DNA from: Dehalococcoidia bacterium
Lineage (GTDB): Bacteria; Chloroflexota; Dehalococcoidia; Lucifugimonadales; UBA3495
Reading direction: 5' to 3'
Assembly: GCA_965237775.1 (NCBI GenBank)
Contig: OZ250155.1
Coordinates: forward strand, 4,703,814-4,767,813
DNA: 64,000 bases
Shown one piece after another: positions 4,417 through 58,700 of the stretch (position 1 is the first letter of the stretch; each line of letters starts with the position of its first letter). The translations under genes and the position numbers were made by a program. The notes under the pieces are model-generated. The model searched no databases. It had not been told where the DNA came from and saw only the letters and a program-made list of their open reading frames with translations.

Positions 4417-4754
4417 TTAGTCTCCTTCAGGATCACCCAGGTGTTTGGCCGGCATAAAAATAGGGGAGCCGGATGCGGTAGACTTGGGAATGCGCTGAAA
4501 GTTCGGAGAAATCTCTGCGGCTCTCCCCGGATTCCACCTTGTCACCGCATTCTAACGGATTCAGGTATCGGGCGGGCCGTCGCCCTGACATAGCATTAAT
4601 TCGCACCCCGTTGACTGCATGCGTGGATTCTTCCCGTGCCGCTTACGCTACCTACCTGTGGCCATCGTCGCCCGTATGCTCCTAGGAGTTGGTCAACTAG
4701 GTATTGGGATTTGTTTAAGAAAGGGGCCAATTGGGGTATCCTGCCTAGTGGAAA

Positions 4755-5249: not shown

Positions 5250-5925
5250 GCGCCGAGTTCGTGGCCAACATGGAGGATGTCCTGGATCTCTACGCCGAAC
5301 CCTATGACCCCCAAAGGCCGGTAGTCTGCTTTGACGAGACCTCCACCCAGTTGTTGGCGGAGACCCGGCCCCCGATGCCGCCCCGGCCGGGACTTCCGCT
5401 GCGGCAGGACTACGAATACCGCAGGGAGGGTACCCGCAACGTGTTCTTGGCCTGCGAGCCCTTGGCGGGTTGGCGAGAGGTGGCGGTGACCCAGCGGCGC
5501 ACGATGCAAGACTTCGCCCATCAGATGCGCTGGCTGGCGGATGAAGCCTACCCGGAAGCCGAGGTGGTAAGGGTTGTCTTGGACAATCTGAACACCCATC
5601 GCCGGGCATCGCTGTACGAGACTTTCCCGGCTGAGGAAGCCCGGAGGATTGCCAGGCGGCTGGAGTTCCACTATACCCCCAAGCATGGAAGTTGGTTGAA
5701 TCCTGTCCTGAGCTTGTCGAAGGGATGGCGGAGATCGAGTTCAGCGTCCTGTCCCGCTCCTGCCTGAAGCAGCGGCTCTCCAGCGAGGAGGCCCTCAGGA
5801 GGGAAGTCGATGCTCTGGTCACGGAGCGCAACGCCGCCAGAGCAACCATCAACTGGCGGTTCAATACCCGGGACGCACGAACCAAACTTCACCGCCTTTA
5901 CCCTTTCGATTTTACGATTGACTGA
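5246..5925 (+). CDS. IS630 type-1 transposase orfB (DDE part), split into two frames by a 23-nt insert at 5702-5724
   Basis: VVCFDETSTQL, VVLDNLNTH and FHYTPKHGSWLN lie in ORF 5246..5767. MAEIEFSVLSRSCL..., carrying the catalytic E region, lies in ORF 5692..5925, one further -1 frame away. Confidence 0.75.
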
Positions 5926-5931
5926 GTACTA

Positions 5932-6920
5932 GTACTCAGTCAACTTGGGCTTGGGATTTGTTTAAGAAAGGGGCCAATTGAGCTATCCTGGCTGGTGGGA
6001 AGTGTTGATGGCGGGGGTAGAAGTGATGGTCAGGGACAAATACGCGGTGCGGCTGGCACAGGAACAACGGGAAGAGCTCCAACGACTGGTCCGGGTTGGC
6101 AAAAACTCAGCCCGAGTGACCGCTAGAGGGCGGATTCTCCTAAAGAGCGGCGACGGTTGGGCCGCGCCCCAAGTGGCCGAAGCTTTGGATGTGGCTCTGA
6201 GCACGGTATACCGGGTCAAGCAGCGCTTTGCCGAAGAAGGGTTGGAGAAGGTTTTGCGGGACCGTCCCCAGGCCAACCGGCCCCGGAAGCTGGACGACCG
6301 GGGCGAAGCCCACCTAATTGCCTTGGCCTGCAGCCCGCCGCCGGAAGGACATGACCACTGGACCCTGCGTCTGCTGGCCGGGAAGGTGGTGGAGTTGGGG
6401 CTGGCGTCCTCCATGTCCCATGAGGGGGTCCGAAAGCGTCTCAAAAAAACACTCTCAAGCCGTGGCAGAAGAAGGAGTGGTGCATCCCTAAGGTGAGCGC
6501 GGAATTTGTGGCTAACATGGAGGATGTCCTGGATCTGTACGAGGAACCTCATGATCCCCAACGTCCGGTGGTCTGCTTTGACGAGACCTCCACCCAGTTG
6601 CTGGCCGAGACCCGGCCGCCGCTCCCGCCCCGGCCGGGACGTCCGCTGCGGCAGGACTACGAATACCGCAGGGAGGGTACCCGCAACCTCTTCCTGTCCT
6701 GACCTTGTCGAAGGGATGGCGGAGATCGAGTTCAGCGTGCTGTCCCGCTCCTGCCTGAAGCAGCGGCTCTCCGGCGAGGAGGCCCTAAGGAGGGAAGTGG
6801 ACGCTCTGGTCACGGAGCGCAACAACGCCAGAGCCACCATCAACTGGCGGTTCAACACCCGGGACGCACGAACCAAACTTCACCGCCTTTACCCTTCCGA
6901 TTTTACCGTTGACTGAGTAC
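5932..6920 (+). mobile_element. IS630 type 1, copy 2, internally deleted, head-to-tail with copy 1
   Basis: It starts GTACTCAGTCAACTTGGGCTTGGGATTTG directly after the TA shared with copy 1 and ends GTTGACTGAGTAC plus TA (6921-6922). orfA (5978..6496) is intact. orfB stops after ...EGTRNLFLS because ~250 bp (ACEPLAGW...HGSWLN) are missing relative to copies 1, 3 and 4. Confidence 0.85.
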
Positions 6921-7154
6921 TAGGAGTCGGTCAAATCATCGCCAGGGAGTGAGAAATATCAGTGAATTCCGGCCTGCATCTCAGCATAATGGGGTCCACC
7001 GAATTCCAGATAGTTGTCTGGCCTGTGCCTTTTCGTAGAATTTTCGCGGCGCTACGATAGTCTCCCGAAATGAGGATTCCGCACGTGGAAAGATTCGACT
7101 GCGAATCGGAGGCCCATATCTGGGACATCGACCGAGCCCGGAGGGTTCACGGTT

Positions 7155-10100
7155 GTGCCTGACGAAAGCTCCCTACTCCTAGCCCGTTGCCTCTCGTTGG
7201 ACCTTGAAGTCGGGGTCAAGGACCGCCGCATCCATGCCCTCGCTGGAGTACGCGCGGATACCGGTCAATCCCTGACTCTATCCGTAGCGGGCGGCCGCTT
7301 GGCTTCGGCGTTGGCCAAGCTGGACGACCTTGCCGAAGGCGCGGACTTCGTTCTGGGCCACAATCTCATCGATTTCGACCTCCCCCAATTGCAAGCCGTG
7401 AATCCAGGTTTGCGCCTGTTGCGGCTGCCGGCGGTGGATACACTCAGGCTCAACCCCCTGGCGTTCCCCCGCAACCCCTATCACCACTTGGTCAAGCATT
7501 ACCAAGACGGGCAACTCAAACGCGGGCGCATCAATGACCCGGAACTCGACGCCAGACTTGCGCTGGAGGTTTTCCAGGACCAGCAAAAGGCTCTGAAGAC
7601 TGCGCCGGCCGGCCTGTTAGCAGCCTGGCACTGGCTGACCGCGGCGGATGATGGCGAGGGCTTCGATAGGGTTTTCGAGTACCTTCGTAACTCACCAAGG
7701 CCGTCCGACGCCGAGGGGCGTGACGCGATTTACAGGGTATTGGATGGAAGTTCCTGCCAGACCCATGCCCGCGAGGCCACGGCGGATGCGGCTCGGCGCG
7801 GTTGGGGGGTGGCCTATGCCCTGGCTTGGCTGTCGGTGTCCGGGGGCAACTCGGTCATGCCTCCCTGGGTCCGGCATCAATTTCCGGAGGCGGGGAAGTT
7901 GGTCCGCCGGTTGCGCGACACCGCTTGCGTTGACCCCGGCTGCGGCTGGTGCCGGCAACGTCACGACGCCCGCAAGGAACTGACCCGTTGGTTCGGTTTT
8001 GACGACTTCCGGCCTGAGCCGATGGACGAAGCCGGGCGGCCCTTGCAGCAGTCCATCGTCGAAGCGGTGATGGCTGGGGAACATGTGCTCGGAATCTTGC
8101 CCACCGGCGCAGGCAAGTCCCTTTGCTATCAGGTACCGGCCCTGTCCCGCTACGACAAGACCGGCGCCCTGACGGTGGTGGTCTCGCCCTTGGTCGCGCT
8201 CATGGCCGACCAGGTGGAAGGACTCGAGGCGCGGGGCATCGGTTCTTGCGTAACCATCAATGGGTTCCTCTCCATGCCCGAACGAGCCGATGCGTTGGAC
8301 CGGGTGCGGCTGGGGGACGCCAGCATTCTCATTGTGTCGCCGGAGCAGCTTCGCAATGTCTCCCTGCGCCGTGTCTTGGACCAACGGGAGATCGGGGCAT
8401 GGGTGCTGGACGAGGCCCACTGCCTTTCCAGTTGGGGGCACGACTTCCGGCCCGATTACCGCTACGTGGGCCGCTTCATCCGCGAGAAGGCAGGGGAGGA
8501 GTCTGCGCCTCCGGTGCTGTGCCTGACCGCTACCGCCAAGCCCGATGTGAAGTCTGACATAGTTAATTACTTTGAGAAAGAGCTCGGCGTCAAGCTGAAG
8601 GTCTTCGACGGCGGGGCCCAACGCACCAACCTGGATTTTGTGGTGGTGCAGACGACCAGCGGGCAAAAGTTCGCTCACGTCCACCAGATTTTAACAGCCG
8701 ACCTTCCCACGGATGGACCGGGCGGTGCCATTGTCTATTGCGCCACCCGACGCCAGACCGAAGAGCTGGCGGAGTTCTTGCAGTCAGCAGGATTGGAATC
8801 GGCCCACTTCCACGCGGGACTGCCGCCGGAGACCAAGAAGAACGTCCAGCAAAGCTTCATTCGAGGCGACCTGCGTGCCATCGTAGCCACCAACGCCTTT
8901 GGCATGGGTATCGACAAGCCGGACGTGCGGCTGGTAATCCACGCCGACATACCCGGTTCCCTGGAGAACTACATGCAGGAGGCGGGACGCGCTGGACGGG
9001 ACCAGCAGTCGGCGCGTTGCGTTCTGCTCTACACCCCGGACGACGTGGAGCGTCAATTCGGCATGTCTGCCCGTTCACGGCTTACGCGGCGTGAGATACA
9101 TGGCGTTCTCAGGGCGCTGCGGAATCTGGACCGGAAGAACCGCCTGAACGGCGAGGTGGTGGCCACCGCCGGTGAGATTCTTGGCGAGGACGAAGACAAA
9201 GTATTCGAGCGCGATTCAGCCACCGACGACACCCGCGTGCGGACCGCGGTGGCCTGGCTGGAGGATGCGGTGCTGCTGACCCGCGAGGAGAACCGGGTGC
9301 AGGTCTTTCCGTCCTCGCTGCGGGTGGGTTCAATAGAGGAGGCACGTGCCAAACTCGCAAATGCCCGCATCGCCGATGCCTACCGCCGCCAACTCCTGGC
9401 TATTTCCGCTTCGCTCATCGAGGCGGACCCGGACGAGGGCATCTCCACCGACGAGTTGATGACCGTTTCGGGCCTGACCCCGGAGCGCGTGCGGGGCGCG
9501 CTTCACGATCTGGAAGGCTTGGGCATCGCCAGCAACGATACCGCGTTGACCGCCTTCGTCCACGCGGGAGTTGACCGCAACTCGAAGAAGCGTTTCGACG
9601 AGGCGGCGGAGCTTGAGAAGGGCCTTATCGACCTTCTGCGTGAGGCGGCTCCCGATATGGGCAGGGGTGATACGTCCATGCTCCATCTCCGCCTCGCCAC
9701 CCAACAGCTCAAGGACGAAGGCCATACCTACGCCCTGCCTGAACGCCTGGGGCGCATTGTACGGAGCATCGCCGCCGATGGACGGGGTGACGGCGGCAGT
9801 GGGGGAAGCCTTGGGATTAGGGGCCGCGACCCCGAGACCTTGCAGGTGACGTTGCAACGCGAGTGGGGAGCGTTGGAAAAAACTGCGGAACTCCGCCGCG
9901 CAGCCGCCTCGCGCCTGCTGGACCACCTGCTCGCCTGCCTGCCGCCGGGAAGCCGGGGCACCGACCTACTGGCCGAGACGACACTGGGCAAGCTGCTGGC
10001 GGCGATCAAGGCCGACATGGTCCTAACCAGCGAAGTCAGGGAACCCGCAAAGCTGATGGACCGTGCATTGTTGTGGCTGCACGAGCAGGAGGTCGTCCGG

Positions 10101-12266
10101 CTGAATAAGGGTTTGACGGTGTTTCGCCCAGCCATGACCATTCGCCTGGAGCCAGAAAGGCGGGGATTCGCCCAGTCGGACTTCGCATCTCTCAAGCTGC
10201 ATTACGACGAACAGGTTCGACAGATCCACGTGATGGCGGAATACGTGCAGCGGGGCCTTGAATCCATGGCCAACGCGCTCCGCCTAGCCCTAGACTACTT
10301 TACGCTTCGGGAAGAGCAATTTCTGCAAAGATGGCTGCCAAACCGGGACAGCGAGATTTCGCGGCAGACCACGCCGGAATCGTGGCAGACGATCGTCGAG
10401 AGCCTGAACAACCCCGTCCAGCGCCGCATCGTGGTAGACGACCGGGAGCAGACCAACGTCCTTGTGCTCGCTGGCCCCGGCTCTGGCAAAACCAGAGTGC
10501 TGGTGCACCGGATCGCCTATCTGATACGGGTGAAGCGCGAGGACCCTCGCGGAATTCTGGCTCTCGCCTACAACCGCCACTCGGCGGCGGAGATCCGCCG
10601 CCGTCTTGCGGACCTCATCGGCGACGACGCCCGTGGTGTGATGGTGCTCACTTGCCACGCCCTCGCCATGAGAATGGTTGGCGCGAGTTTCTCGGGCCGC
10701 GCGAACCGCTTGGACGAAGGTGAATTCCAGCAAGTGCTTCGACAGGCGGCTGACCTGCTGCGTGGGAAAGGACTGCCGCCCGATGAAGCGGACGAGTACC
10801 GGGCGCGTTTGCTGGCGGGTTTCCGCTGGATTTTGGTGGACGAGTACCAGGACATCGGTCCGGACCAATACGAGCTGATCTCCGGTCTGGCGGGCAGGAC
10901 TCTTTCCGAAGAAGACGACAAGCTCAGCCTCTTCGCGGTGGGAGACGACGATCAGAACATCTACGCTTTTAACGGCTCGTCGGTGGAGTTTATCCACCGG
11001 TTCGAGGCGGACTACGGGGCCAAACCTACCTTCCTCACCGACAACTACCGCTCCACGGGCCATATCATCGACGCCTCAAATGCGGTGATCGAGCCGGCGC
11101 GGCAACGGATGAAGGCTGGACACCCGATCAGCATCAACCGGGCGCGAGCTAGGGAATTACCCGGCGGTGTCTGGTCTCAAAGGGACCCCGTCTCGCGCGG
11201 TCAAGTACAGATATTGCCAGCCGGCGACACCCCTATCACTCAAGCTCAGATGGTCGTCGCCGAGCTGAAGCGGCTGTCCGGCCTCACTCCGGATTGGTCC
11301 TGGTCTACCTGCGCGGTGGTGGCGCGGGAATGGAGCTTCCTGGACCCGGTGCGCAGCCTCTGTGAGCTTGAGGGAATTCCGGTGCAGATGGCGAACGAAG
11401 AGTTCTCGGGCATCTGGCATTTGCGGGAGACCCGGGCGCTACTGAACTGGCTGCGCGGGCGAGACTCCAACTTGGTGAAGAGCGCGGACCTAGACGAATG
11501 GCTGACTGGGCAACCCTCAAATCCTTGGAACGAGCTGTTGGGAGAAGCCGTCGCGGAGTTCGAGTTGGAGACTAGCGACTTGGAAACGCCGGTGGACTAC
11601 TTTATCGAATGGTTAGCCGAGTGGGGACGGGAAGTACGCCGCCGCCAGCGCGGGTTGATGTTGCTGACCGCCCACCGGGCCAAAGGCTTGGAGTTCGACC
11701 ACGTGGTGGTGCTGGACGGAGGTTGGGACCGCCTTTCACGCGGCGAAGATGCGGACGCCCCGCGCCGCCTTTACTACGTGGCCATGACCCGCGCGCGGCA
11801 GACGCTCATCCTCGCTCGTTTTCCCGGACCGCATCGGCTTCAGGATGCCTTGGTGGACCGTCCCTCGGCGCTGCGCCGGGCGGACTCCGTCAAACTCCCA
11901 CCGGCGTCGCCTGGACTCGAACGCCGCTATCGGCGCCTCAGTCTACGCGACGTCTTTCTCAGCTTCGCTGGATACAGGCAGCCTGGCCATCCGGTGCATC
12001 GCGCCATTGCCGCCCTCTCACCCGGAGATCCGCTGCAATTGCGGGTTGGGTCGAGGCGCTGGGATCTTTTGGATAGCAACGGTACTGTCGTAGGACAACT
12101 TGCCAGTGGTTTCGAGCCGCCCACCGGCCTTCGCTGCTCCTTTGCCACGGTCATGGCCATCGCCACCTGGGATAGGGAGCGTTCGGAGCCGGAGTTTCAG
12201 GACGGCCTTCGGTGCGACACTTGGGAAGAGGTCGTTCCGGAGTTGGTCTTCGAGCCGGATTCGTGA
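7155..12266 (+). CDS. Exonuclease-like / RecQ helicase / UvrD-type helicase triple fusion (1703 aa)
   Basis: GTG start ~10 nt after GGAGGG. The N-terminus has DnaQ-like Exo I/II motifs (LSLDLEV, LGHNLIDFDLPQL). The RecQ core has ILPTGAGKSLCYQVPAL, VLDEAHCLSSWGHDFRPDY, LCLTATA, IVATNAFGMGIDKPDVRLVIH and QEAGRAGRD. The C-terminal UvrD/PcrA core has VLAGPGSGKTRVLVHRIAYL, ILVDEYQDIGPDQYELI, VGDDDQNIYAFNGS, TDNYRST, LLTAHRAKGLEFDHVVVLD and YVAMTRARQTLIL. Confidence 0.85.
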   Translation: MPDESSLLLARCLSLDLEVGVKDRRIHALAGVRADTGQSLTLSVAGGRLASALAKLDDLAEGADFVLGHNLIDFDLPQLQAVNPGLRLLRLPAVDTLRLNPLAFPRNPYHHLVKHYQDGQLKRGRINDPELDARLALEVFQDQQKALKTAPAGLLAAWHWLTAADDGEGFDRVFEYLRNSPRPSDAEGRDAIYRVLDGSSCQTHAREATADAARRGWGVAYALAWLSVSGGNSVMPPWVRHQFPEAGKLVRRLRDTACVDPGCGWCRQRHDARKELTRWFGFDDFRPEPMDEAGRPLQQSIVEAVMAGEHVLGILPTGAGKSLCYQVPALSRYDKTGALTVVVSPLVALMADQVEGLEARGIGSCVTINGFLSMPERADALDRVRLGDASILIVSPEQLRNVSLRRVLDQREIGAWVLDEAHCLSSWGHDFRPDYRYVGRFIREKAGEESAPPVLCLTATAKPDVKSDIVNYFEKELGVKLKVFDGGAQRTNLDFVVVQTTSGQKFAHVHQILTADLPTDGPGGAIVYCATRRQTEELAEFLQSAGLESAHFHAGLPPETKKNVQQSFIRGDLRAIVATNAFGMGIDKPDVRLVIHADIPGSLENYMQEAGRAGRDQQSARCVLLYTPDDVERQFGMSARSRLTRREIHGVLRALRNLDRKNRLNGEVVATAGEILGEDEDKVFERDSATDDTRVRTAVAWLEDAVLLTREENRVQVFPSSLRVGSIEEARAKLANARIADAYRRQLLAISASLIEADPDEGISTDELMTVSGLTPERVRGALHDLEGLGIASNDTALTAFVHAGVDRNSKKRFDEAAELEKGLIDLLREAAPDMGRGDTSMLHLRLATQQLKDEGHTYALPERLGRIVRSIAADGRGDGGSGGSLGIRGRDPETLQVTLQREWGALEKTAELRRAAASRLLDHLLACLPPGSRGTDLLAETTLGKLLAAIKADMVLTSEVREPAKLMDRALLWLHEQEVVRLNKGLTVFRPAMTIRLEPERRGFAQSDFASLKLHYDEQVRQIHVMAEYVQRGLESMANALRLALDYFTLREEQFLQRWLPNRDSEISRQTTPESWQTIVESLNNPVQRRIVVDDREQTNVLVLAGPGSGKTRVLVHRIAYLIRVKREDPRGILALAYNRHSAAEIRRRLADLIGDDARGVMVLTCHALAMRMVGASFSGRANRLDEGEFQQVLRQAADLLRGKGLPPDEADEYRARLLAGFRWILVDEYQDIGPDQYELISGLAGRTLSEEDDKLSLFAVGDDDQNIYAFNGSSVEFIHRFEADYGAKPTFLTDNYRSTGHIIDASNAVIEPARQRMKAGHPISINRARARELPGGVWSQRDPVSRGQVQILPAGDTPITQAQMVVAELKRLSGLTPDWSWSTCAVVAREWSFLDPVRSLCELEGIPVQMANEEFSGIWHLRETRALLNWLRGRDSNLVKSADLDEWLTGQPSNPWNELLGEAVAEFELETSDLETPVDYFIEWLAEWGREVRRRQRGLMLLTAHRAKGLEFDHVVVLDGGWDRLSRGEDADAPRRLYYVAMTRARQTLILARFPGPHRLQDALVDRPSALRRADSVKLPPASPGLERRYRRLSLRDVFLSFAGYRQPGHPVHRAIAALSPGDPLQLRVGSRRWDLLDSNGTVVGQLASGFEPPTGLRCSFATVMAIATWDRERSEPEFQDGLRCDTWEEVVPELVFEPDS

Positions 12267-14456: not shown

Positions 14457-14883
14457 AATTCCGAACATTCACCCCTAATGATCCTGAACCCATCTCTTTG
14501 TCCTACGTTGGGCTGGGTAATTTAGCCTTATCGGTGTGCGGAGTAACCCGCCTGTGAGAGGGGTCTCCGCGGCACGGCCGCGCCTGGTCTGCCTCAGGTT
14601 CGGTCCTTAAGCGTACTAAACCAAAGCCAAGGTGGGATGTGCATTTACAATACATCGGTGATTGGGCTGGGATTCTCGCAGAAATCCTTCGGCCTTTGAT
14701 TGCAGGACGGTGCGGCAGCGGTCCTTGACCTCGTCTTTCCGGATGGACAGCCCGCAGAGGAAATTCCCGACCCTCTCCTTTACCAGGGCCTTGGTTCCCA
14801 AGCACAGGTTTCCGGTGGCTTCCTCTCTCGCCCAGCCCCAGATGGCCTCATCGGCGCCTCCGTCCGGGCTGTAGCCCGGCAGA

Positions 14884-14906
14884 GCCTGCCCTCGTGAAAA
14901 CGGGGG
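14884..14906 (-). repeat. 23-nt micro-insert (CCCCCGTTTTCACGAGGGCAGGC), site 2 of the type-2 transposase
   Basis: Absent from the same position in copy B: LRLVNLPGYSPDFNADE there versus LRLMNPRFHEGRLC... here. Confidence 0.85.
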
Positions 14907-15106
14907 TTCATCAGCCGCAGCCCCAAGCCCGGCGTCCGCAGATACTCACGCACCGCCTCGCCGCGGTGCGCCGGCGCGTTGTCCCAAATCACGTTGAGCG
15001 GCCCGGAGTGCCTCTGCCGCAACCGCTCCAGGAAGGCAGCCGAGGTTCCGGAGTTGCTGTTCCCCTCCAGGTCCATCCACTCCACCTCACCGGTCTCCAG
15101 GCACAC

Positions 15107-15189
15107 TGCCGAGTAGTAGCTGGGCCGAGTAGTAGCTGGGCCGAGTAGTAGCTGGGCCGAGTAGTAGCTGGGCCGAGTAGTAGCTGGCC
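15107..15189 (-). repeat. 16-nt tandem repeat (TGGGCCGAGTAGTAGC; five copies of the core versus one in copy B)
   Basis: Read directly from the sequence: four full units at 15121-15184 plus a partial first and last unit. Copy B and copy C have a single CCAGCTACTACTCGG. Confidence 0.9.
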
Positions 15190-15225
15190 TTTTCGCCATA
15201 GCTCGGGCTGGTCGAGTCCACCAAA

Positions 15226-15248
15226 GCCTGCCCCCGTGAAAACGGGGG
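15226..15248 (-). repeat. 23-nt micro-insert (CCCCCGTTTTCACGGGGGCAGGC), site 1 of the type-2 transposase
   Basis: Perfect hairpin CCCCCG-TTTTCA-CGGGGG. Absent in copy B: GESALVDSSSPRYGEKASYYS there versus GEPAPRFHGGRLWW... here. Confidence 0.85.
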
Positions 15249-16208
15249 GCCGGCTCTCCCTTTAGCACCCATTTGCCTCTCAGTTCGGCATCGGCCCGGA
15301 AATGGGCCTCGTCGGCTATGAATATCTTCGCTCCCGTACGCCACGCCTCGTCCGACAGGGTGGCGTACTCCGCCACGAAGGCCTCCCGCTTCTGCTCATC
15401 TGCCTTGACCAGACGCTTCTTGGGACGCTTCAGGACAAACCCCAAGCGGTGCAGATAGTTCAGGCAAGTGCTGCGGCTCAGGCCAATGCCGAAACGCTTC
15501 GAGACAAACTGCCGCACCACTTTCCTCCTGAGCCTGCCGAAGGGTCCAGTTGGCCATTTCTATGCCCGACATCCCGGGCAACTCCCGCACTGCCCCCGTC
15601 AACTCCGCCTGTTGCGTCTCGCCAAGTGCGGGGGGAACCCCCGGTCTGCTCGAATATCAAGGCTGCAGGCCCTCCCTCGCCGAAGGCGGCGGCCCATCTG
15701 CCGATGGTGTGAGCATCCCGGCCCAGTGCCCGGGCGGTGCCCGAGGCGGTCAGGCCCCGGCACAGGAGCCACAGTGCGTGCCACCGTTCTCTCTCCCGGG
15801 GTGTCGGCGCTAGGTACATCCTGCTGCGCACACTAGCCAAGTCCAACTGCCACCCCTCCAAGTCCGGCCTTATCCCCCTCATACCCATCACCATCCCCAC
15901 TCAGTCTGCTCCCAGTCCCGACGCCATGCCTCCCTGATTCTAGCCGACGCAAATGCGGATTTCACCTTGGCTTTGGTTTAGTACTATAGCGCCATTATTT
16001 CCAAACCTAAATCCCGTCCTCTCTAGATTCTGACTGGCTTGAGCCAGCCCCCTTGGGCCGTCCGGTGACATGGGCAAGTTTCTATTGGAAGCCAGTTGGA
16101 TCGTCCGACGGACCGCTAGGTCCTCGCAAGCCTCCGCCCCCATATTGGCGTGGACCGCAGGTCTGAAGTGAGCGGTTGCCCATTAATTAGAGCAGCACTA
16201 TTGTCCTA

Positions 16209-17444
16209 AACCAAAGCTAAGGTGAAATGCGCAGAGTCATGGGGTAAATTTGTGGGGAGAACCGAGTTAACTGGTCTTTGAAGATGCGAGGGGTTGGTGA
16301 TGGGCGTGAGGGAGATGGAGCGGTTTCTGGAACAATGGCAGATGGATGCCAAGGGCTTGCGCCGCCGGATGATTCTGGCGCCAACGCCCAGGGAACGGGA
16401 GCGGTGGTACGCCATCTTGCTGCTGGCACAGGGCTGGACAGCATCAGGGACGGCGGAGGCGCTGGAACGGGACCCACACACCATAGGACGGTGGGCCGCC
16501 GCCTTCGGCGAGGGAGGGCCTGCAGCCTTGATATTCGAGCAGACCGGTGGTTCCCCCCCGCCCTTGGTGAGACGCAACAGGCGGAGTTGAAGGCAGCGGT
16601 GGAGGAGTTACCGGAGCAGGCGGGCATCGAACTGTCCAACTGGTATTGGAAGGTGGTGCGGCAGTTCGTTTCGGAGCGGTTTGACGTCAGTTTGAGCCGC
16701 AGCAGTTGCCTGAACTATCTGCACCGCTTGGGATTTGCCTTCAAGCGCCCCAAGAAGCATCTGCTCAAGGCGGATGAGGCCAAGCGGGAGGCTTTCGTAG
16801 CGCAGTACGCCGCCCTGTCGGAGGAGGCCATACGGTCCGGGGCCAAGATATTCTTCGCCGACGAGGCCCACTTCCGGGCGGACGCCGAACTGCGGGGCAA
16901 ATGGGTGCTCAGGGGAGAGTCGGCCTTGGTGGACTCCAGCAGCCCACGCTATGGGGAGAAGGCCAGCTACTACTCGGCGGTTTGCCTGGAGACCGGCGAG
17001 GTGGAATGGATGGAACTGGAGGGGAACAGCAACTCCGGAACCTCAGCCGTCTTCCTGGCACAACTGAGGGAGAGGCACTCTGGGCCGCTCAACGTGATCT
17101 GGGACAACGCGCCGGCACACCGTGGCGAGGCGGTGAGGGAGTATCTGCGGACGCCGGGGCTGGCGTTGAGGCTGGTGAATCTGCCGGGCTACAGTCCGGA
17201 CTTCAACGCCGATGAGGCCATCTGGGGCTGGGCCAGAGAGGAGGCGACGGGAAACCTGTGCTTGGGCAGCAAGGTCAAGGTGCAGGAGAGGGTCGATCAC
17301 TTCCTCGATGGGCTAGCCAAGCGGAAGGATGAGGTGAAGCGGCGCTGCCGCACCGTCCTGCAATCATGGGCCGAAAGTCTCCCGCGACACTCGCAGCCCG
17401 ATTCCGGGCTCACCCTAATTGCACATCCCACCTTGGCTTTAGTT
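16209..17444 (+). mobile_element. IS630 type 2, copy B, the only apparently intact copy
   Basis: Termini are AACCAAAGCTAAGGTGAAATG ... CATCCCACCTTGGCTTTAGTT with C-TA...TA-G flanks. It has no 23-nt inserts and no tandem expansion. Confidence 0.85.
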
Positions 17445-17447
17445 TAG
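16294..17447 (+). CDS. IS630 type-2 transposase (orfA plus orfB joined by a -1 shift in a C7 run)
   Basis: orfA reads ...RWAAAFGEGGPAALIFEQTGGSPP. The C7 run is at 16553-16559. The -1 frame continues ALGETQQAELKAAVEELPEQAGIELSNW... (track ORF 16278..17447). DDE residues lie in FADEAHF, IWDNAPAH and SPDFNADEAIW. Confidence 0.8.
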
Positions 17448-17540: not shown

Positions 17541-18628
17541 ATGACATAGGAGTTACGCAGTTGGATGGAGAGTGTACTTGGGATAAGCCAGGTAATCTCG
17601 TAGGGCCGAGCGGATGATGTTGGCTTTGGAGTCGTACCAGGAGACTCCGGCGCTCAAGCGGTGGGCTTCCAGCCGCAGGAAGGCTTGGAGGGACAGGCGG
17701 ATGTGATTCCGCTGTCCCTCTGCCGTACGCACTTGGCATTTCTCCACGCCACAACATTGTTTGAGACCCCGGTGGTACGTTTCGATTCCCCCGGCTTGGC
17801 GCGCCAGGCTTTCCCGTTGTTGCTCCGTCATTTCCAGGTCATTGGTGGCCCAGTGTTCCACGTCCCCGTCTTTGGAGACCGTCCGAAACACTCGGATAAA
17901 CCCATAGCCTCGCAGATGCACCTGCCGGCCTCCCTGGGGTATCGCCACGGTGGCCAAGGGCAAGTTCCCCGCTCCCTCTGGATTCACCCGCCGGTTGGAC
18001 CGCAATTGGCTCAGCCAGAACCATCCCTTATCCCTGATGGCTTTCAAATTCTCCAAGCTGGTATACCAACTGTCGAACAGCACCCACCGGGGCTGAAAGC
18101 CCCGCCCCTCCGCCACCTCCAGCATCCGCCGGAAGTGGTCGTTCTTGGTCAGACCGCTTAGGGGACGGTCATAGGCCCGGAAATCGCAGGGTATCAGCGC
18201 ATTGCCATCAGTCCACAACAAGGTCAGCAGGTTGATGCCCCATACCACTCGCTTGTGCTTGCCGCTCCAATGTCGGAACACCAGTTCCATCCGCTTGGCG
18301 TAGGGCTTGTCCAGGGTGGTGTCGTCCAGCACCAGCACCCCCTCCTCCCGTCGCACCAGTCCCTGGGTTTCCTGCCACAGCGCCTCCGTGTCGGGGGGCT
18401 GTCTCCGCAGCAGACGGGTGAATGCGTCATGGGCTGGAGCTTGCGGTGATTCCGGTTGACACCGCGCCGCTTCGCTGCAGGTAAATCTCCTCTGGGCTGC
18501 CACCAAGAACTGAATGTAGTCCACCGCATCACATTTGGCCGGGTTCATCTCCCCCACCTCCGCCTCACTCCTTCTATCTTATCCCATCCCCAGCCTTAGC
18601 TCTCTCAACTGCGTAACTCCTATGACAT
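17541..18628 (-). mobile_element. IS701/IS4-like insertion sequence with 23-bp terminal inverted repeats
   Basis: ATGACATAGGAGTTACGCAGTTG (17541-17563) matches the reverse complement of CAACTGCGTAACTCCTATGACAT (18606-18628) at 22 of 23 positions. Confidence 0.8.
17553..18557 (-). CDS. DDE transposase (IS701/IS4-like), 334 aa
   Basis: Track ORF with VLVLDDTTLDKPYAK, VLFDSWYTS and GGIETYHRGLKQCCGVEKCQ, which look like DDE-type motifs. Confidence 0.75.
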   Translation of the reverse strand: MGEMNPAKCDAVDYIQFLVAAQRRFTCSEAARCQPESPQAPAHDAFTRLLRRQPPDTEALWQETQGLVRREEGVLVLDDTTLDKPYAKRMELVFRHWSGKHKRVVWGINLLTLLWTDGNALIPCDFRAYDRPLSGLTKNDHFRRMLEVAEGRGFQPRWVLFDSWYTSLENLKAIRDKGWFWLSQLRSNRRVNPEGAGNLPLATVAIPQGGRQVHLRGYGFIRVFRTVSKDGDVEHWATNDLEMTEQQRESLARQAGGIETYHRGLKQCCGVEKCQVRTAEGQRNHIRLSLQAFLRLEAHRLSAGVSWYDSKANIIRSALRDYLAYPKYTLHPTA

Positions 18629-23151: not shown

Positions 23152-23205
23152 AAGCCGACCGCCCAAGAGTACCTAAGGTTTTTGTGTCGATTGGAAGACA
23201 GAGAA
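23152..23205 (+). repeat. About 50-nt element R1 upstream of the SIR2 gene
   Basis: CCGACCGCCCAAGAGTACCTAAGGTTTTTGTGTCGATTGGAAGACAGAGAA is an imperfect direct repeat of 24577-24632. The first 26 nt match at 21 positions. An inverted 11-mer GGCGGTCGGCT lies at 23078-23088. Confidence 0.7.
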
Positions 23206-23303
23206 CTCCGTCTGCGTCTAGCCAACTCGCCGGAATTGCTGGTTTTCTCGACGGCTGGGTAAACTTGTTACGCAATTTCGGACAAACGGGAGACTACATC
23301 GAT

Positions 23304-24317
23304 ATGAGCGATACGTTCCTGTTAGGAGCCGGTTTCTCCAAAGCAATCTGCAAGACGATGCCGACGATGAAAGAAATCTACGAGCTCCTAGAACCGTTAA
23401 TCGGTAGGGCGGACGGTTTCAGCAGAGAGGCGTACGACTACGCATCTGGCAACGTTGAGACACTGCTCTCGTACTACGCAATACCCAATCCACATGACGA
23501 CACCGTTGAGCTGTTACGTAAACAGCGAGTAACGACTCTGTTAGAAATCGGGATAGGAGCGCTTCTCCAAGAGCGTGAACGCGAGGGAGCAGAACAGGGA
23601 CTAAACCCCAACGGCTCAAAGCTCGTCTCGAAATGGCACGATCAACGAAGTCACATACTGACAACGAACTACGATACACTAGTGGAAAGAATCGCTGCGG
23701 AAAAGGAATACACAACAGCCAACGGAAGCAAGGATAAGCTATATTACACGGATCTGTATCCGATACCTGTCAGCTCGGCCCTATCACGAGATGGAGGAAT
23801 GATATTTGGCTCCAATTATCCAGATACCCTCACTCTATATAAGCTTCATGGTTCAACGACTTGGTTCAAGTCAACAAGCGAAACAAACTTCGACCCAATA
23901 TACGGTCTTTCACACGAGCAGTTCGACAATCCCCGGCACCAAAAGTTCATTGCCGACAAGCGTCGTTTTATTGTGCCTCCAGTATATGACAAGTCTTCAC
24001 TGCTGAACCATGAAAGCATTCGTAACTTATGGTGGCAAGCCAGGAACAACGCCCTAAGACAAGCGGATAATCTATATGTAATTGGCTACTCACTCCCAGA
24101 AACTGACGCAGCCATGCACATCCTATTGTGGGAGGGAACGCGAACCGAGACGCCTGCTACGAACGGTAGGAAATCACTTTATGTAGTCGATGTGGATAAA
24201 ACGGTCAGCCAACGCTACACAGAGAAATTAGGTTCCTATTACGACGTCAAGGATTATTACGCAGGCAATGCAGATGCGTTTGACATTTTTGTCGAGGAGT
24301 ATGTCAAAGATACATAA
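23304..24317 (+). CDS. SIR2-family (SIR2_2-like) protein with no extra domain, 337 aa
   Basis: ATG 23304 lies ~10 nt after GGGAGA. Motifs are FLLGAGFSKA, ILTTNYDTLVE and LYKLHGS. This is the visibly most AT-rich gene in the window. The upstream part of the track ORF (from 23184) was not counted. Confidence 0.75.
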   Translation: MSDTFLLGAGFSKAICKTMPTMKEIYELLEPLIGRADGFSREAYDYASGNVETLLSYYAIPNPHDDTVELLRKQRVTTLLEIGIGALLQEREREGAEQGLNPNGSKLVSKWHDQRSHILTTNYDTLVERIAAEKEYTTANGSKDKLYYTDLYPIPVSSALSRDGGMIFGSNYPDTLTLYKLHGSTTWFKSTSETNFDPIYGLSHEQFDNPRHQKFIADKRRFIVPPVYDKSSLLNHESIRNLWWQARNNALRQADNLYVIGYSLPETDAAMHILLWEGTRTETPATNGRKSLYVVDVDKTVSQRYTEKLGSYYDVKDYYAGNADAFDIFVEEYVKDT

Positions 24318-24849: not shown

Positions 24850-26272
24850 TCAAGCGACCGCCGCCGGGTTGAGGGGTACGCCCGGAATATGGCCCGGCGC
24901 ATCGGACATAGGCACCAGTTGATAGCCCAGTTGATGCGCCCGCCGTTTCGCAGCGCGCAGCGCCCGTTGCTGATACTGACTCTCATAGTATTCGGCGCCG
25001 GCATCTACGTAGTCCTGCCCGAAGCGCAGCATGGAGTAGATGAGTCTCGCCAGCTTGTGAGCCGTGGCGGTGATGGCCTTGGGTGCTCCCAAGTGTGCTT
25101 TCTTCCGGCGCAGGAAGGCCCCCGGGGCGCTGTTGGAGCGGTGCAGTCCATGGGCAGCCAGGCGCAATGCCGCCGCGGTCCGGTTGGCGCTGGGCTTGGT
25201 CTTTGAGCTCATGACCTTACCACCGGTGATGCGGTTGTCGGGGCTCAGCCCCAGCCAGGACGCGAAGTGCTTGGCGCTGGGCCATTTCGTCATGTCGGCG
25301 CCAATCTCGCTGATCACCTTCAAGGCCGTGAAGCCGTCTATCCCATCGATCCGGGTCAGGTCCACCCCGGTCATCCGATACAGGTGTGTCCTGATATCGA
25401 AGCTGGGCGCGTTGCCCTGGCTGCGCCGCCGGCCATTCCCGGCAGGAGTCCCGCCGTCGGTGACGTCCTCAAACCGTTCCAACTGGGCTTCAATCTTCCC
25501 GTCGCACTCATCAATCTTGGCGTGATACATCCGGTATAGTTCCAGAGCTTGGGTCAGCTCGAAGATGTGCTCTTCGAGCCAGTGCCCCTGTAACGACTTG
25601 GCGATGGTCTCCTCGTCCGCCCTGATCCGGTGGTCGCGGAGTTGCGCCAGCTGCCACGGGTCCCGTTCTCCGCTCACGATGGCTTCAATAATCGCCATGC
25701 CAGTCTGGCCAGTGATGTTGCTGATGACGTGCTGGAGCTTCACGTTCATCTGGGTCAGCGCCTTCTGCATGTGCTGAATGTGATGGGACGCGTACTCAAC
25801 CAGCATGGCCCGCTGCCGCAGGTAGCTCCGCAAGCGTCGTATCTCCGGCTCGGGCCGGAAGGCTCCCGACAACAGGCCGTAGGTGTGCAACTGTTGCAGC
25901 CACTGGCAGTCCTGCACGTCGGTCTTGCGCCCAGGCACGTTCTTGATGCGCCTGGGGTCTACCAGCATCACCTCGAACCCCCGCTCTTCCAGCACCCCGA
26001 ACAGCGGTATCCAATACACCCCAGTCGACTCCATGACCACGGTCCCCACTCCGCACTCCGACAGCCAGGCGATACAAGTCTGCCGTGAAGGCTTCAAACT
26101 CGCGCACCGGCTGGTCGCGACGGTCTTGGGGCACCGCGACGAAATGGCTGCTGGCCCCCACGTCAATACCAGCCGCATCCAGGTTTACCTGAGACAGCTG
26201 CGCGGGCAGACGCTCCCGCCTCCGGGTCGTCTGGCGCGCCGGTTTTGCGCTCCTCTGGCGAGTCGTCATCAT
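24850..26272 (-). pseudogene. IS110-family transposase with a 1-nt frameshift
   Basis: The N-terminal part MMTTRQ...AAGIDVGASSHFVAV...FTADLYRLA (ORF 25796..26272) is out of frame with ...AWLSECGVGTVVMESTGVYWIPLF...HKLARLIYSMLRFGQDYV (ORF 24850..26178). The shift is near 26075. Confidence 0.8.
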
Positions 26273-29340: not shown

Positions 29341-30743
29341 GGCTGACAGGGGTATGTAAAGTCTTAAAATAGTTTGAGAACTTGGAAAGCGCACGGGAAT
29401 CTGGCATCTTGGTTGCAATCACGAAACCGGATGCCGGAGGTCTCCCATGCGCCTTCCCAGCGAATGCTACCAGATGAAGCAGGCTGATGAAGCAGGCTAT
29501 TGAAACGCATATGCCCCACCTCAGCCGGCCGCAATTGACCGGGCTGGTTCTATGGGTGTGCGGGACTATTCTGACCGGGAGCGCCTGCCAGAACGCCGTC
29601 GCCGCCGCTCTCTCGACCCGGGGCAGTTGGAACAACATGCGGCAGTACCTCCGGGAGTGGCTGTACGACGGCGCCGACCGGGCGCGCCCCTGCGGGACGG
29701 AACTGGACGTAAGCCTCTGCTTCGCACCGCTGCTGAGATGGGTCCTTTCGTGGTGGCGTTCCGACAGGCTGGCGTTGGCGATAGACCCGACGCTGAAAGG
29801 GAAAGAGACCACCGCCATAGTCATAAGCGTGGTCTACCGCGGCTGTGCTATTCCGGTGGCGTGGCGCATCATGCGGGCCAACAAGCCGGGTGCGTGGATG
29901 GATCCGATAGTCGAGCTGCTGCAGGCGCTGGCCCCGGCGGCGCCGGAGGGGATGAACGTGATTGTGCTGTGCGACCGGGGCCTGACCAGTCCGAAATTGT
30001 GGGAACAGATACGCGCCCAGAGCCTGCCCCCGGCCACGACCGGGGGGCTGGCATCCGTACATGAGGTACCCTAAAAACACGACTTTCTGCGCCGAGGGAG
30101 GCCGCCGTCTTCCGGCGCGGACCTTCCTTTCCCGTCCGGATACCGCCGGATACCGCGTGGATTGGCGGCGGGACCGCGTGGATTGGCGGCGGGACCGCGT
30201 TCAGCGACGCAACCGTGAAACGCCGCTGCACCCTGATCGTGGTCTGGTACGCTGAGCAGGAGGAGCCGTGGATCATACTGACCGACCACCCACCCGGAGA
30301 AGCGGGAGCGAGTTGGTACGCGCTCCGTTTCTGGATAGAACTGGGCTTCAAGATGCTCAAGAGCGTCGGCTGGCAATGGCAGAGGACCCGGAGGACCAGC
30401 CCGGAGCGGAATTCCCGGCATTGGCTCGTGCTATCGGTAACTACCCTGATGGCCCTGGCCTATGGGACCAGGGTGGAAGACGCCTTTGACCGTAAGATCG
30501 CCCCCGGCAGCCTGAGAGCGCCTCCGAAATGCCTGGCGTCCACTCACCTCGATAGTAGGAGTAGGCCGGGACGGACCGTCAGCCTGGTCCGCCACGGCAT
30601 CGGCTGGCTGAGGCGGTTGATGCACCGGGGCAGGCTCTGGAGCCGGGTGTGGCTGCTGCCCGAACCGTGGCCGGAACTTAAGCCCGGCCTGGAGATCCAC
30701 TGCCTCGCCCCCGCTTGAAACTCAATACATACCCCTGTCAGCC
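29341..30743 (+). mobile_element. IS4-family element with a decayed transposase
   Basis: The inverted repeats are GGCTGACAGGGGTATGTAAAG (left) and ATACATACCCCTGTCAGCC (right). Confidence 0.75.
29487..30718 (+). pseudogene. IS4-family transposase in at least two frames
   Basis: ORFs 29487..30074 (...LAIDPTLKGKETTAIVISVVYRGCAIPVAWRIM...VIVLCDRGLTSPKLW) and 30215..30718 (...WYALRFWIELGFKMLKSVGWQWQRTR...) are separated by a frameshifted gap. The gap contains a 21-nt x2 tandem duplication (30153-30194). Confidence 0.7.
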
Positions 30744-41883: not shown

Positions 41884-41906
41884 CCCCCGTTTTCCCGGGG
41901 GCAGGC
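41884..41906 (+). repeat. 23-nt micro-insert-type sequence outside any IS630 copy (CCCCCGTTTTCCCGGGGGCAGGC)
   Basis: It differs at only 1-2 positions from the copies at 14884, 15226, 53030, 53298 and 58570. It has the hairpin CCCCCG-TTTTCC-CGGGGG. Confidence 0.8.
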
Positions 41907-44220: not shown

Positions 44221-44344
44221 CGCATGGCGCCTCTGCAACAGATGGACTGCGGGTCCCTGGACTCCATGGCCATGGCCGGGAGGGCAGTCACGGGCGGACC
44301 GTGCGCCACCCGCCGTTGCCCTAACCGAGACTGACCGTCTCCCC

Positions 44345-52089: not shown

Positions 52090-52092
52090 CTA

Positions 52093-53585
52093 AACCAAAG
52101 CCAAGGTGAAACCCGCATTTGCGTCGGCTAGAATCAGGGAGGCATAGCGTCAGGACTGGGAGCAGACTGAGTGGGGATGGTGATGGGTATGAGGGGGATA
52201 AGGCCGGACTTGGAGGGGTGGCAGTTGGACTTGGCTAGTGTGCGCAGCAGGATGTACCTAGCGCCGACACCCCGGGAGAGAGAACGGTGGCACGCACTGT
52301 GGCTCCTGTGCCGGGGCCTGACCGCCTCGGGCACCGCCCAGGCACTGGGCCGGGATGCTCACACCATCGGCAGATGGGCCGCCGCCTTCGGCGAGGGAGG
52401 GCCTGCAGCCTTGATATTCGAGCAGACCGGGGGTTCCCCCCCTGAGAGGGGTAGGTAAAAAGTGAAATCAGCTACAAAACTCTGGAATGCACAGGACTCA
52501 GCCGCCGACTCCTCGCAGCGCTTAGATCGCTCCAAATCCGAGTTTTCAGGTTTGTAAACCATAGAACGAACCACCATCCTGCATGATGTTTATCAGCATG
52601 ACGCGAAAATACCTACCCCTGTCAGGTCCCCCCCCCCCGCACTTGGCGAGACGCAACAGGCGGAGTTGACGGGGGCAGTCCAGGAGTTGCCCGAGATGTC
52701 GGGGATAGAAATGGCCAACTGGACCCTTCGGCAGGCTCAGGAGGAAAGTGGTGCGGCAGTTTGTCTCGAAGCGTTTCGGCATTGGCCTGAGCCGCAGCGC
52801 TTGCCTGAACTATCTGCACCGCTTGGGGTTTGTCCTGAAGCGTCCCAAGAAGCGTCTGGTCAAGGCAGATGAGCGGAAGCGGGAGGCCTTCGTGGCGGAG
52901 TACGCCACCCTGTCGGACGAGGCGTGGCGTACGGGAGCGAAGATATTCTTCGCCGACGAGGCCCATTTCCGGGCCGATGCCGAACTGAGAGGCAAATGGA
53001 TGCTAAAGGGAGAGCCGGCCCCCCGTTTCCACGAGGGCAGGCTTTGGTGGACTCGACCAGCCCGAGCTATGGCGAAAAGGCCAGCTACTACTCGGCAGTG
53101 TGCCTGGAGACCGGTGAGGTGGAGTGGATGGACCTGGAGGGGAACAGCAACTCCGGAACCTCGGCTGCCTTCCTGGAGCGGTTGCGGCAGAGGCACTCCG
53201 GGCCGCTAGGCGTGATTTGGGACAACGCGCCGGCGCACCGCGGCGAGGCGGTGCGTGAGTATCTGCGGACGCCGGGCTTGGGGCTGCGGCTGATGAACCC
53301 CCGTTTTCACGAGGGCAGGCTCTGCCGGGCTACAGCCCGGACGGAGGCGCCGATGAGGCCATCTGGGGCTGGGCGAGAGAGGAAGCCACCGGAAACCTGT
53401 GCTTGGGAACCAAGGCCCTGGTAAAGGAGAGGGTCGGGAATTTCCTCTGCGGGCTGTCCATCCGGAAAGACGAGGTCAAGGGCCGCTGCCGCACCGTCCT
53501 GCAATCAAAGGCCGAAGGATTTCTGCGAGAATCCCAGCCCAATCACCGATGTATTGTAAATGCACTTCCCACCTTGGCTTTGGTT
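52093..53585 (+). mobile_element. IS630 type 2, copy C (two 23-nt inserts plus a MITE in the frameshift site)
   Basis: It has the same termini and C-TA...TA-G flanks as the other type-2 copies. orfA is 52171..52458. The orfB pieces are 52748..53209, 52924..53424 and 53403..53588. The inserts are at 53030-53052 and 53298-53320. Confidence 0.85.
52442..52625. mobile_element. MITE (~184 bp) related to the IS4-family element at 29341-30743
   Basis: The terminal inverted repeats are CTGAGAGGGGTAGGTA and TACCTACCCCTGTCAG. The reverse complement of the right end, CTGACAGGGGTAGGTA, matches the IS4-family terminus CTGACAGGGGTATGTA at 15 of 16 positions. It is inserted inside the poly-C frameshift run of the IS630 type-2 transposase. 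Confidence 0.75.
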
Positions 53586-53940
53586 TAGGAGGTCAATGTC
53601 ATCCAGATGTCCAGACGGGAGTTCGACTATTGCCGGGACGCATCACAGCCTATCGCGGGTCAGACAGCCCACCAAAGGACCAGCATGAACCGGTCCGACC
53701 CCTCTGCTTTGTTCTCCACGAGGCGGTCAAACATATGGTCCAAGTCCCTGCAGTACTCGTTGTTGTTATCGTTTTTGTGGTCTATCTTTCCGTCAACGGG
53801 CTGTTCCTGTTCATTGGAAAAGTCGTCCTAAGAGCTCTCATCCCCTGGGGCGTGCTGAGCCGCGCCCTCGAGCTGTTTCGCGCCCCTCAGGACCGCCTGA
53901 GCCTTCCTCCGGTTGTCATCCCGCAGGGCGTCGGCTGCCA

Positions 53941-58384: not shown

Positions 58385-58700
58385 TCAGCAGTGGTTGCTC
58401 CTCTCATAATTCTTCCGACAGGCCAACCCGGCGAGGAAGCCGCTCATCCTCTCTTGCACTAGGGACTTGGTTCTCAGGCGCTGGTTTCCTGTCGCCTCCT
58501 GTCTTGCCCAGCTCCATACCGCCTCATCGGCGTTGAAGTCCGGGCTGTAGCCCGGCAGAGCCTGTCCTCGTGAAAACGGGGGTTCACCAGCCCAAGTCCC
58601 AAGCCTGGTGTCCGCAGGCACTCCCTTAGCATGTTTCCACGGTGCGCCGGCTGATGCTTCCTGTCTGACTCGGAGCAACCTACGGTGGGAGCCTTGCGGC
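58385..58700 (-). pseudogene. Remnant of the IS630 type-2 transposase C-terminal region, with a 23-nt insert at 58570-58592
   Basis: ...LPGYSPDFNADEAVWSWARQEATGN... and ...LRTPGLGLGLVNPRFHEDRLC... occur in two frames. No IS termini are present. Confidence 0.7.

Follow-up and report, generated by a model that had tools for sequence, protein, structure and literature searches.

The window analysed here, a 64,000-nt stretch of contig OZ250155.1 of a Dehalococcoidia bacterium (assembly GCA_965237775.1, positions 4,703,814 to 4,767,813 of the forward strand), contains six copies of a 23-nt hairpin sequence, here called the 23-mer, all of which sit within insertion sequence (IS) genes. The 23-mer is a discrete structured unit that has recently been gained, or precisely lost, at many sites. 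It is probably a very small non-autonomous mobile DNA repeat, similar to repetitive extragenic palindromes (REPs) and inserted at the DNA level. Of the explanations proposed in an earlier note on this DNA, mobilisation in trans of a REP-like mini-element is favoured by the many sites, by the polymorphism between near-identical IS copies and by the nesting in REP loops; a cognate REP-associated tyrosine transposase (RAYT) was not found in the window or in 1.6 Mb of other loci, and the 23-mer lacks the GTAG or CGTC tag.

Copies of the 23-mer in the window

The 64 kb were searched with the query CCCCCGTTTYCMCGRGGRCAGGC / CCCCCGTTTTCACGRGGGCAGGC, with up to three mismatches allowed, and compared with 100 dinucleotide-preserving shuffles. 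Six copies are found, each with at most one mismatch, and none is expected from the shuffles:

14884..14906, minus strand: 23-mer at site 2 of IS630 copy A, in the DDE domain between the DxxD...NADE parts; no mismatches (alignment)
15226..15248, minus strand: 23-mer at site 1 of IS630 copy A (search and alignment)
41884..41906, plus strand: 23-mer in a decayed ISAs1-like transposase remnant (search), with identical site and orientation in the relatives L007, L019 and L090
53020..53042, plus strand: 23-mer at site 1 of IS630 copy C, loop variant TTTC to TTCC; one mismatch
53298..53320, plus strand: 23-mer at site 2 of IS630 copy C (search)
58560..58582, minus strand: 23-mer at site 2 of the IS630 remnant (search and alignment)

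The IS630 copies, which were defined by repeat search and alignments, are as follows, the vertical bar marking the insertion point here and below:

14616..15981, minus strand: copy A, from terminal inverted repeat to terminal inverted repeat, a pseudogene with a C6 tract, a 16-nt segment, two 23-mers and a 64-nt expansion
16206..17447, plus strand: copy B, empty at all five sites of the family
16925..16926, plus strand: empty site 1 in copy B, GCC|TTGGTGG (alignment)
17179..17180, plus strand: empty site 2 in copy B, GAA|TCTGCC (alignment)
52090..53588, plus strand: copy C, with two 23-mers and a 185-bp insert similar to a MITE (miniature inverted-repeat transposable element)
about 58402-58651: remnant, site 2 filled

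Both positions given for copy A in the earlier note are recovered by the search, and the alignments agree with it that copy B lacks the insert at either site (16925|16926 and 17179|17180) and that site 2 of copy A falls between the DxxD and NADE parts of the DDE domain. Copy C carries both inserts and the remnant is filled at site 2, as the note had stated, with two coordinates to be corrected: the site-1 insert of copy C starts at 53020 and not at 53030, and the site-2 insert of the remnant at 58560 and not at 58570, both having been placed 10 too high. The copy at 41884 does lie outside IS630, yet inside another IS, the decayed ISAs1-like remnant.

Hairpin anatomy and sibling families

In the folded 23-mer a tetraloop closes a 7-bp stem, CCCCCGT/TTTC/ACGGGGG (CCCCCGT-TTTC-ACGRGGG). 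The tail CAGGC(T), which comes next, is unpaired, and the base after CAGGC is T in 57 of 71 contexts. The hairpin previously drawn as CCCCCG-TTTTCA-CGGGGG with a tail is real and is better represented by these 7 bp, the 4-nt loop and the CAGGC tail. The element is asymmetric, with the tail on one side only. Its 7-bp GC-rich stem, 4-nt loop and total of 23 nt agree in size and shape with the definition of REPs (bioRxiv 10.1101/279083). Among copies with up to four mismatches, stem pair 7/12 is T-A in 131 and C-G in 13, with single changes in only 3, which is compensatory variation. The A15 variant, present in about half of the copies, breaks the stem as written and leaves the complementary strand whole through G.T, with a GAAA loop. 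This is a weak hint that the complementary strand may be the folding one, weak because the scan pattern varied only at positions seen in the window.

The foot CCCCCG...CGGGGG (CCCCCG...CGGGGGCAGGCT) and the tail CAGGCT(C) are common to the sibling families, whose inner pairs and loops differ:

sibling family 1: CCCCCGC-YTTC-GCGGGGG
sibling family 2: CCCCCGG-TCGTGG-CCGGGGG
sibling family 3: CCCCCGA-TCGCAG-TCGGGGG
30021..30046, minus strand: sibling-family hairpin in the window, CCCCCGG-TCGTGG-CCGGGGG-CAGGCT, with stem foot and tail as in the 23-mer

The sibling copy at 30021-30046 is also kept in the 84%-identical relative L101, and because of this conservation its origin by insertion is unproven. 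When it is deleted in silico, the two surrounding open reading frames (ORFs) do not merge.

Filled and empty sites

Comparison of thirteen IS630 copies, taken from the window and eight further loci, reveals five insertion sites that are filled in some copies and empty in others, as a mosaic. In the window, copies A and C are 97.6% identical and copy B is about 78% identical to A. Over 1154 nt, B shares 99% identity with the copy of locus L058, which has the site-1 insert that B lacks. L058 was considered as the orthologue of copy B's locus and rejected, since the flanks disagree. Single genomes hold IS5 copies of 98-99.6% identity, some with and some without a sibling insert of 23 nt or 25 nt, and an ISAs1 copy in L090 has a sibling insert that is absent from L007. 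The atribacterial GTAG REP GTAGGACAGGCG-TCT-CGCCTGTC is empty in L021, L073 and L180 and elsewhere has a net 22-nt insert in its loop. These nine comparisons, in which some IS copies are 98-99% identical, give the following filled and empty sites with their flanking targets:

IS630 site 1: empty form GCC|TTGGTGG; filled in A, C, L003, L022, L033, L058, L074 and L107; empty in B, L009, L109a and L109b
IS630 site 2: empty form GAA|TCTGCC; filled in A, C, the remnant, L009, L022, L033, L074, L107 and L109b; empty in B, L058 and L109a
IS630 site 3: empty form GGGC|CTGCAG; filled only in L009 and L022
IS630 fourth site: empty form CCACC|TCACC; reverse-oriented sibling in L033
IS630 site 5: empty form CTA|TCTGCAC; filled only in L074
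IS5, 23-nt sibling: empty form GGAC|TTTGGC
IS5, 25-nt sibling: empty form CACC|TTGGCC
ISAs1, L090 against L007: empty form TCCC|CTGGAT
Atribacterial REP loop: empty form GTC|TCGCC

Insertion takes a single orientation with respect to the target, with C (or A) on one side of the entry point and a T(C/T)TG-like motif on the other. Over the 71 contexts the downstream flank has T in 57, C in 41, T in 41 and G in 34. The 3' junction reads ...CAGGC|T in 57 of them, and among the nine empty sites seven read C|T or C|C. The junctions shift by about one nucleotide from case to case, and net inserts have 22-25 nt with 4-6 C's at the 5' side. A unit of this length, with no target-site duplication at any of the nine filled and empty pairs and no IS-like inverted repeats, differs from a MITE, which has about 70-300 bp, terminal inverted repeats that match an IS and a target-site duplication. 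Pairing of the tail with the target (GGCAG with CTGCC) was examined as a general rule and rejected, because it suits site 2 and fails for TTGG-type targets.

One IS gene can hold several mini-elements, as in L074, where a single IS630 has three. In the ISAs1 transposase of L007 (the ORF on the opposite strand of 5346), …VSGTGQAL… occurs twice in frame and resembles extra hairpin-tail units.

Distribution of the 23-mer

A total of 185,579 species-representative genomes were scanned with the exact 23-mer pattern, in which variation was allowed only at positions that vary in the window. The scan gives at least 110 loci, at least 121 instances and at least 71 unrelated flank contexts. The 23-mer is thus not confined to the IS copies of the window, and the earlier note's claim of at least three independent insertion sites is borne out by these contexts and by the nine comparisons above. 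Among the genome matches listed, all are metagenome-assembled genomes (MAGs), from more than 10 phyla; the lineages named include Dehalococcoidia (with many chromosome-scale assemblies), Poribacteria, Atribacterota, Planctomycetota, Omnitrophota, Parcubacteria, alpha-, beta-, gamma- and deltaproteobacteria, Oligoflexia, Brocadia, Caldithrix and Chlorobiota.

At least 120 further contigs with the 23-mer are found in a metagenome scan, and IMG/VR has it in one of 2.9 million viral contigs. A plasmid collection (72,556 plasmids, 7.3 Gb) gives only chance-level partial matches. A second metagenome scan, made for IS630 site 2 with a variable gap and aimed at an unbiased count of filled and empty sites, returns no matches. 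With Rfam 15 at the gathering threshold, neither the window nor 19 other loci give a match at the element. A literature search for the sequence on both strands yields chance matches only, and a keyword search finds no description of the 23-mer family, the nearest publications being those on REPs.

Proposed movement of the element

An enzyme acting in trans would move the mini-element: a structure-specific nuclease-ligase for single-stranded DNA, which would read the stem foot and the tail of the hairpin. Because foot and tail are invariant across the siblings and most insertion points are C|T, this enzyme is tentatively placed in the HUH/Y1 type, by analogy with known systems. TnpA_REP cuts single-stranded DNA at C|T beside REP hairpins, and both REPs and IS200/IS605 ends are recognised as a hairpin with an adjoining short guide (PMC8266576; bioRxiv 10.1101/279083). 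It is plausible, if short of probable, that the 23-mer and its siblings form an undescribed cross-phylum superfamily of 22-28-nt hairpin transposable elements, which is currently active in uncultured lineages, enters at C|T(C/T)TG with no duplication, REP loops and transposase genes included, and is moved by an enzyme other than a classical RAYT.

Several observations weigh against REP-like movement. A Pfam scan shows no Y1_Tnp domain in 20 large ORFs of the window, and tblastn over 1.6 Mb around about 240 copies shows no RAYT or Y1 gene linked to the 23-mer. The queries were approximate RAYT and IS200 sequences, together with the RAYT of L092, and they have no significant match in the window. 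The earlier note had recommended a search for a RAYT-type mobilising gene; only three Y1-like genes were found in the 1.6 Mb, namely the L092 RAYT, which has its own different REP, a gene of L180 near GTAG REPs and an IS200-like gene of L181. Neither a GT[AG]G nor a CGTC tag stands at the foot of the 23-mer, where the upstream flank is variable, and on the other strand the 5' neighbour is GCCTG. REPs are usually species-specific (bioRxiv 10.1101/279083), and the 23-mer is identical across more than 10 phyla among the matches listed. C|T is not the dinucleotide at the 5' junction, and the positions of both junctions wobble by about 1 nt. Orientation alternates along a Poribacteria chromosome with no replichore pattern (n=12, from the one chromosome suitable for measuring replication-strand bias, copies inside IS being uninformative), and such mixed orientations fit strict lagging-strand targeting poorly. 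Finally, loci were chosen by exact match to the 23-mer, so that genomic frequencies of filled and empty sites are not derivable from them.

The RAYT of L092 belongs to a classical REPtron of a Caldithrix MAG (2700-3700). It has 149 aa with HVH...Y motifs, with about 12 copies of its own REP, GGAGGGGGGAC-TTTA-GTCCCCCCT, on both sides; a 34-nt tandem array lies upstream at 970-1520.

The same mini-element could instead spread by copy-choice, with no dedicated transposase. A nascent strand or a target-primed reverse transcript would anneal to a donor through T(C/T)TG microhomology, copy it up to the hairpin foot and then return. This agrees with a 3' junction that is always in register with the T(C/T)TG-type motif, with a 5' junction that lies at the foot of the hairpin and shifts by 1 nt (4-6 C's; insert lengths 22, 23, 24 and 25 nt), with the one-sided tail of the asymmetric element and with the lack of a linked mobilising gene in the fetched loci by tblastn. 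However, the 5' junction offers no microhomology that could guide the return, the run-length wobble could arise after insertion, and the cross-phylum identity and the foot and tail conserved among siblings look like recognition by a protein. Copy-choice is rated as unlikely.

Very little weight falls on the possibility that the IS630 mosaic reflects recombination or gene conversion between IS copies and not repeated insertion. IS copies are numerous and recombining, and three sites recur in lineages that are 75-99% identical, but conversion leaves the first insert at each site unexplained, as well as the 71 or more flank clusters of the genome scan, the REP-loop sites and the sibling polymorphisms in other IS families.

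State of the IS630 copies in the window

Besides the 23-mers, the copies have the following lesions and segments:

15108..15187, minus strand: perfect 16-nt tandem repeat GCCGAGTAGTAGCTGG in copy A, five units; one unit in B and C
15530..15545, minus strand, and 52723-52738: 16-nt segment ACCCTTCGGCAGGCTC, in IS630 copies A and C only and absent from all other family members
52443-52626: 185-bp MITE-like insertion in the poly-C tract of copy C, at the junction of the helix-turn-helix (HTH) and catalytic parts, with C runs on both sides

Each insert has 23 nt and shifts the frame, as the earlier note had pointed out, and in copy A the first shift is offset by the tandem expansion: its extra 64 nt and the first 23-mer make 87 nt (23+64=87), the frame is restored and a 246-aa ORF spans the region. 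The second 23-mer of copy A breaks the frame again ahead of the NADE motif. L109b has neither the site-1 insert nor the 64-nt expansion of copy A. Other filled relatives show short tandem duplications near inserts, such as a 12-nt unit present three times in L074 and a 17-nt duplication in L009. The 16-nt segment ACCCTTCGGCAGGCTC, which bears the element tail GGCAGGCTC, may be a collapsed copy at a sixth site; this is uncertain.

The MITE-like insertion of copy C has imperfect terminal inverted repeats, TGAGAGGGGTAGGTA and TACCTACCCCTGTCAGG. The poly-C tract that it interrupts lies between HTH and DDE parts at about 16550 in B, 15630 in A and 52435/52630 in C, and it has C6 in A and L074, C7 in B, L003, L009, L058 and L109a, and C10-11 in L109b and C. 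At this tract copy B reads as two overlapping ORFs, and most database homologues are a single 382-aa ORF; slippage or frameshifting may take place there. Copies A and C are pseudogenes, broken at places besides the 23-mers. The 23-mer has landed in transposase genes that were already dispensable and breaks them, and its host copies in the window are dead or dying.

Host genes and reading frame

In the Dehalococcoidia loci the hosts are overwhelmingly transposase genes, of IS630, IS5, two ISAs1 families, IS4-like, IS701, IS3 and IS110. In other phyla the 23-mer is intergenic, beside or inside CGTC-type hairpins (cgtcATTCCCGC…GCGGGAATcca) and GTAG-type REPs. Ordinary genes can also contain it. 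CarB of L077 has an in-frame 24-nt insert in opposite orientation, and the ORF is read through as …WDL-EPAPVKTG-GDD…; the insert is absent from all 120 of 120 CarB homologues and its position is a hypervariable linker. Further in-frame, read-through copies occur in a UvrD-like helicase (L108) and in a large protein of Poribacteria (L042, 2.6-kb ORF), and IS3 OrfB of L084 has two tandem units of 60 nt in frame. In an ordinary gene, an in-frame copy is simply translated as about eight added residues.

The best 120 IS630 homologues include 119 without an element-encoded peptide, most of them intact at about 382 aa; the exception, P0087, has a garbled stretch over the catalytic E, after which the frame returns. 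Seven of nine filled IS5 copies give perfect 318-331-aa ORFs once the mini-elements are deleted in silico, in a sample of filled copies preselected for an intact 23-mer. An intact empty IS5 protein, 99% identical to the filled copies, forms a cluster of 125 sequences, and because it exists the filled copies can be young and mobilised in trans. A test of stop-free spans with the insert kept or deleted was too noisy in GC-rich DNA, and family-by-family checks were used in its place. By sequence inspection, the insertion point falls inside a codon (NN|T CTG); neither a matching pair of take-off and landing codons nor an X XXY YYZ heptamer is seen. The recurring phase, seen as …PRFHGGRL…, follows from the target NN|T CTG, CTG being the commonest codon.

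On the best reading the element is inserted at the DNA level, and neither RNA removal nor translational bypass is needed. The earlier note had raised the idea of RNA-level removal or translational bypass: the mRNA would lose the insert, or ribosomes would pass over it by programmed hopping or frameshifting, and filled transposases would remain functional. The restored frame of copy A after 87 nt would suit this idea, as would IS630 L058, which like the seven IS5 copies is fully intact after deletion, and so would filled IS5 copies that are 99.6% identical in one genome and have thus multiplied. These IS5 and IS630 copies come, however, from the preselected sample, and the abundant intact empty transposases, at 99% identity, can act in trans. 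The copies in housekeeping genes are in frame and translated, with no frameshifting copy seen there; copies at one and the same site decay to 21-22 nt or reach 24 nt; copies A and C bear the further lesions listed above; and the split codon has, besides the missing take-off match and slippery heptamer, no stop after the take-off codon. Removal or bypass is accordingly given next to no credence, and plain insertion of the REP-like DNA element is retained.

Hardly credible either is the note's suggestion that the 23-mer is the excision footprint of a larger element or the scar of a site-specific recombination system: the lack of target duplication and the constant short palindrome would fit, but the same 23 nt occur at unrelated targets, nested in REP loops and in frame within genes, no long element bounded by CCCCCGT... 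and ...ACGGGGGCAGGC halves was found, orphan heads (6/130) are all decayed full copies and orphan tails all come from sibling hairpin families.

Relation to known repeats

Very small palindromic dispersed repeats are already known, among them REPs, some of 23 nt, CGTC REPs, the in-gene Rickettsia palindromic elements (RPEs) and the small dispersed repeats (SDRs) of cyanobacteria. The 23-mer family is set apart from these by the tail, the lack of known tags, the target rule, the entry into REP loops and transposases, and the cross-phylum identity. The SDRs of heterocystous cyanobacteria, as Elhai et al. reportedly described them in 2008, have 21-27 nt, form hairpins and are said to have inserted recently into otherwise identical sequences and into other repeats; they and the 23-mer are both very small hairpin repeats, with different sequences and hosts. 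Fungal mitochondria have mobile GC clusters, double-hairpin and 'byp' elements, which are short GC-rich palindromes that enter coding regions, byp being translationally bypassed. Unlike the organellar byp, the 23-mer shows no sign of bypass.

The earlier note held the unit to be far shorter than any MITE known to its author; shorter than all known mobile repeats it is not: REPs of 21-65 nt are described, including a 23-nt REP of Stenotrophomonas maltophilia (PMC8266576; bioRxiv 10.1101/279083). The 23-mer resembles the REP/RAYT system in size, in its perfect GC-rich stem of at least 7 bp, in a loop within the 2-5 nt of REPs and in its many dispersed copies, occasionally inside genes. Its insertion points are mostly C|T, where TnpA_REP cuts, although its 5' junction is not. 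It differs in having the 3' CAGGC(T) tail in place of a GT[AG]G guide at the foot and in that no REPtron was found for it in the fetched loci. In contrast to species-specific REPs, it is identical across phyla, and all its copies in the window are inside IS genes.

CGTC-type and GTAG-type REPs were both described by Di Nocera et al. (PMC3733652). REPs are found inside genes, and those of the CGTC type span 5 phyla and have no dedicated transposase (PMC3733652). CGTC-type repeats (Neisseria dRS3, Rickettsia RPE-4 and RPE-6) also lie in frame inside genes, UvrD-type helicases among them (PMC3733652). The 23-mer is like them in this, and in being cross-phylum with no dedicated transposase known, and it often adjoins such hairpins or is nested in them. 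Its stem, its loop and its tail have other sequences, however, and it acts as a unit of its own that enters those hairpins. Like the subterminal hairpins of IS200/IS605, it inserts in one orientation beside a short motif with no duplication (PMC8266576). IS200/IS605 elements combine single-strand insertion, hairpin and guide recognition, two different ends and genes, whereas the 23-mer is a single hairpin only.

In AT-rich Atribacteria-like contigs the 23-mer is the apical part of a GTAG-tagged REP, in which only the outer REP has the tag. At dozens of loci among L112-L231 (for example L114, L128, L141 and L155; 31-37% GC) the composite GTAGGACAGGCG-T-[23-mer]-YCGCCTGTCTA is multi-copy, and the 3' part of its 23-mer, CGAGGACAGGC, nearly duplicates the 5' arm of the REP, GTAGGACAGGC.

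Surroundings in the window

The window (1-64000) is an IS-dense island, with three IS630 copies and the remnant, in which IS genes are interspersed with defence-like genes:

4682-6925, 27807-29082 and 61458-62746: second DDE_3 family, three copies
17556-18578 and 26546-27541: IS701-like DDE_5 genes
24853-26184 and 36606-37844: two IS110-family genes
32242-33252: IstB
7074-12263: DEAD+UvrD fusion helicase, 1730 aa, defence-like
23184-24317: SIR2_2, defence-like
38071-39261: NADAR, defence-like
42187-44400: UvrD, defence-like
47392-49002: DUF3987, defence-like
55752-57881: SNF2, defence-like

Significance

REP-like movement has stayed unsettled since fresh insertions are seldom caught, and this family offers filled and empty pairs at single-nucleotide resolution. 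In vitro tests can thereby be aimed directly at the rule of target choice, C|T ahead of T(C/T)TG, and at the stem foot and tail as the parts recognised. In IS-rich symbiont genomes the tiny repeat often destroys transposase genes, and it is a source of insertions of about eight residues in ordinary proteins. It is also a trap for annotation, where it produces frameshifted 'pseudogenes', spurious PRFHGGRL or PPFSRGQAL peptides and split ORFs. Its identity across phyla poses the question of which conserved machinery reads the element. If the 23-mer and its siblings do form one superfamily, they would be among the smallest bacterial mobile DNAs with nucleotide-defined insertion junctions.

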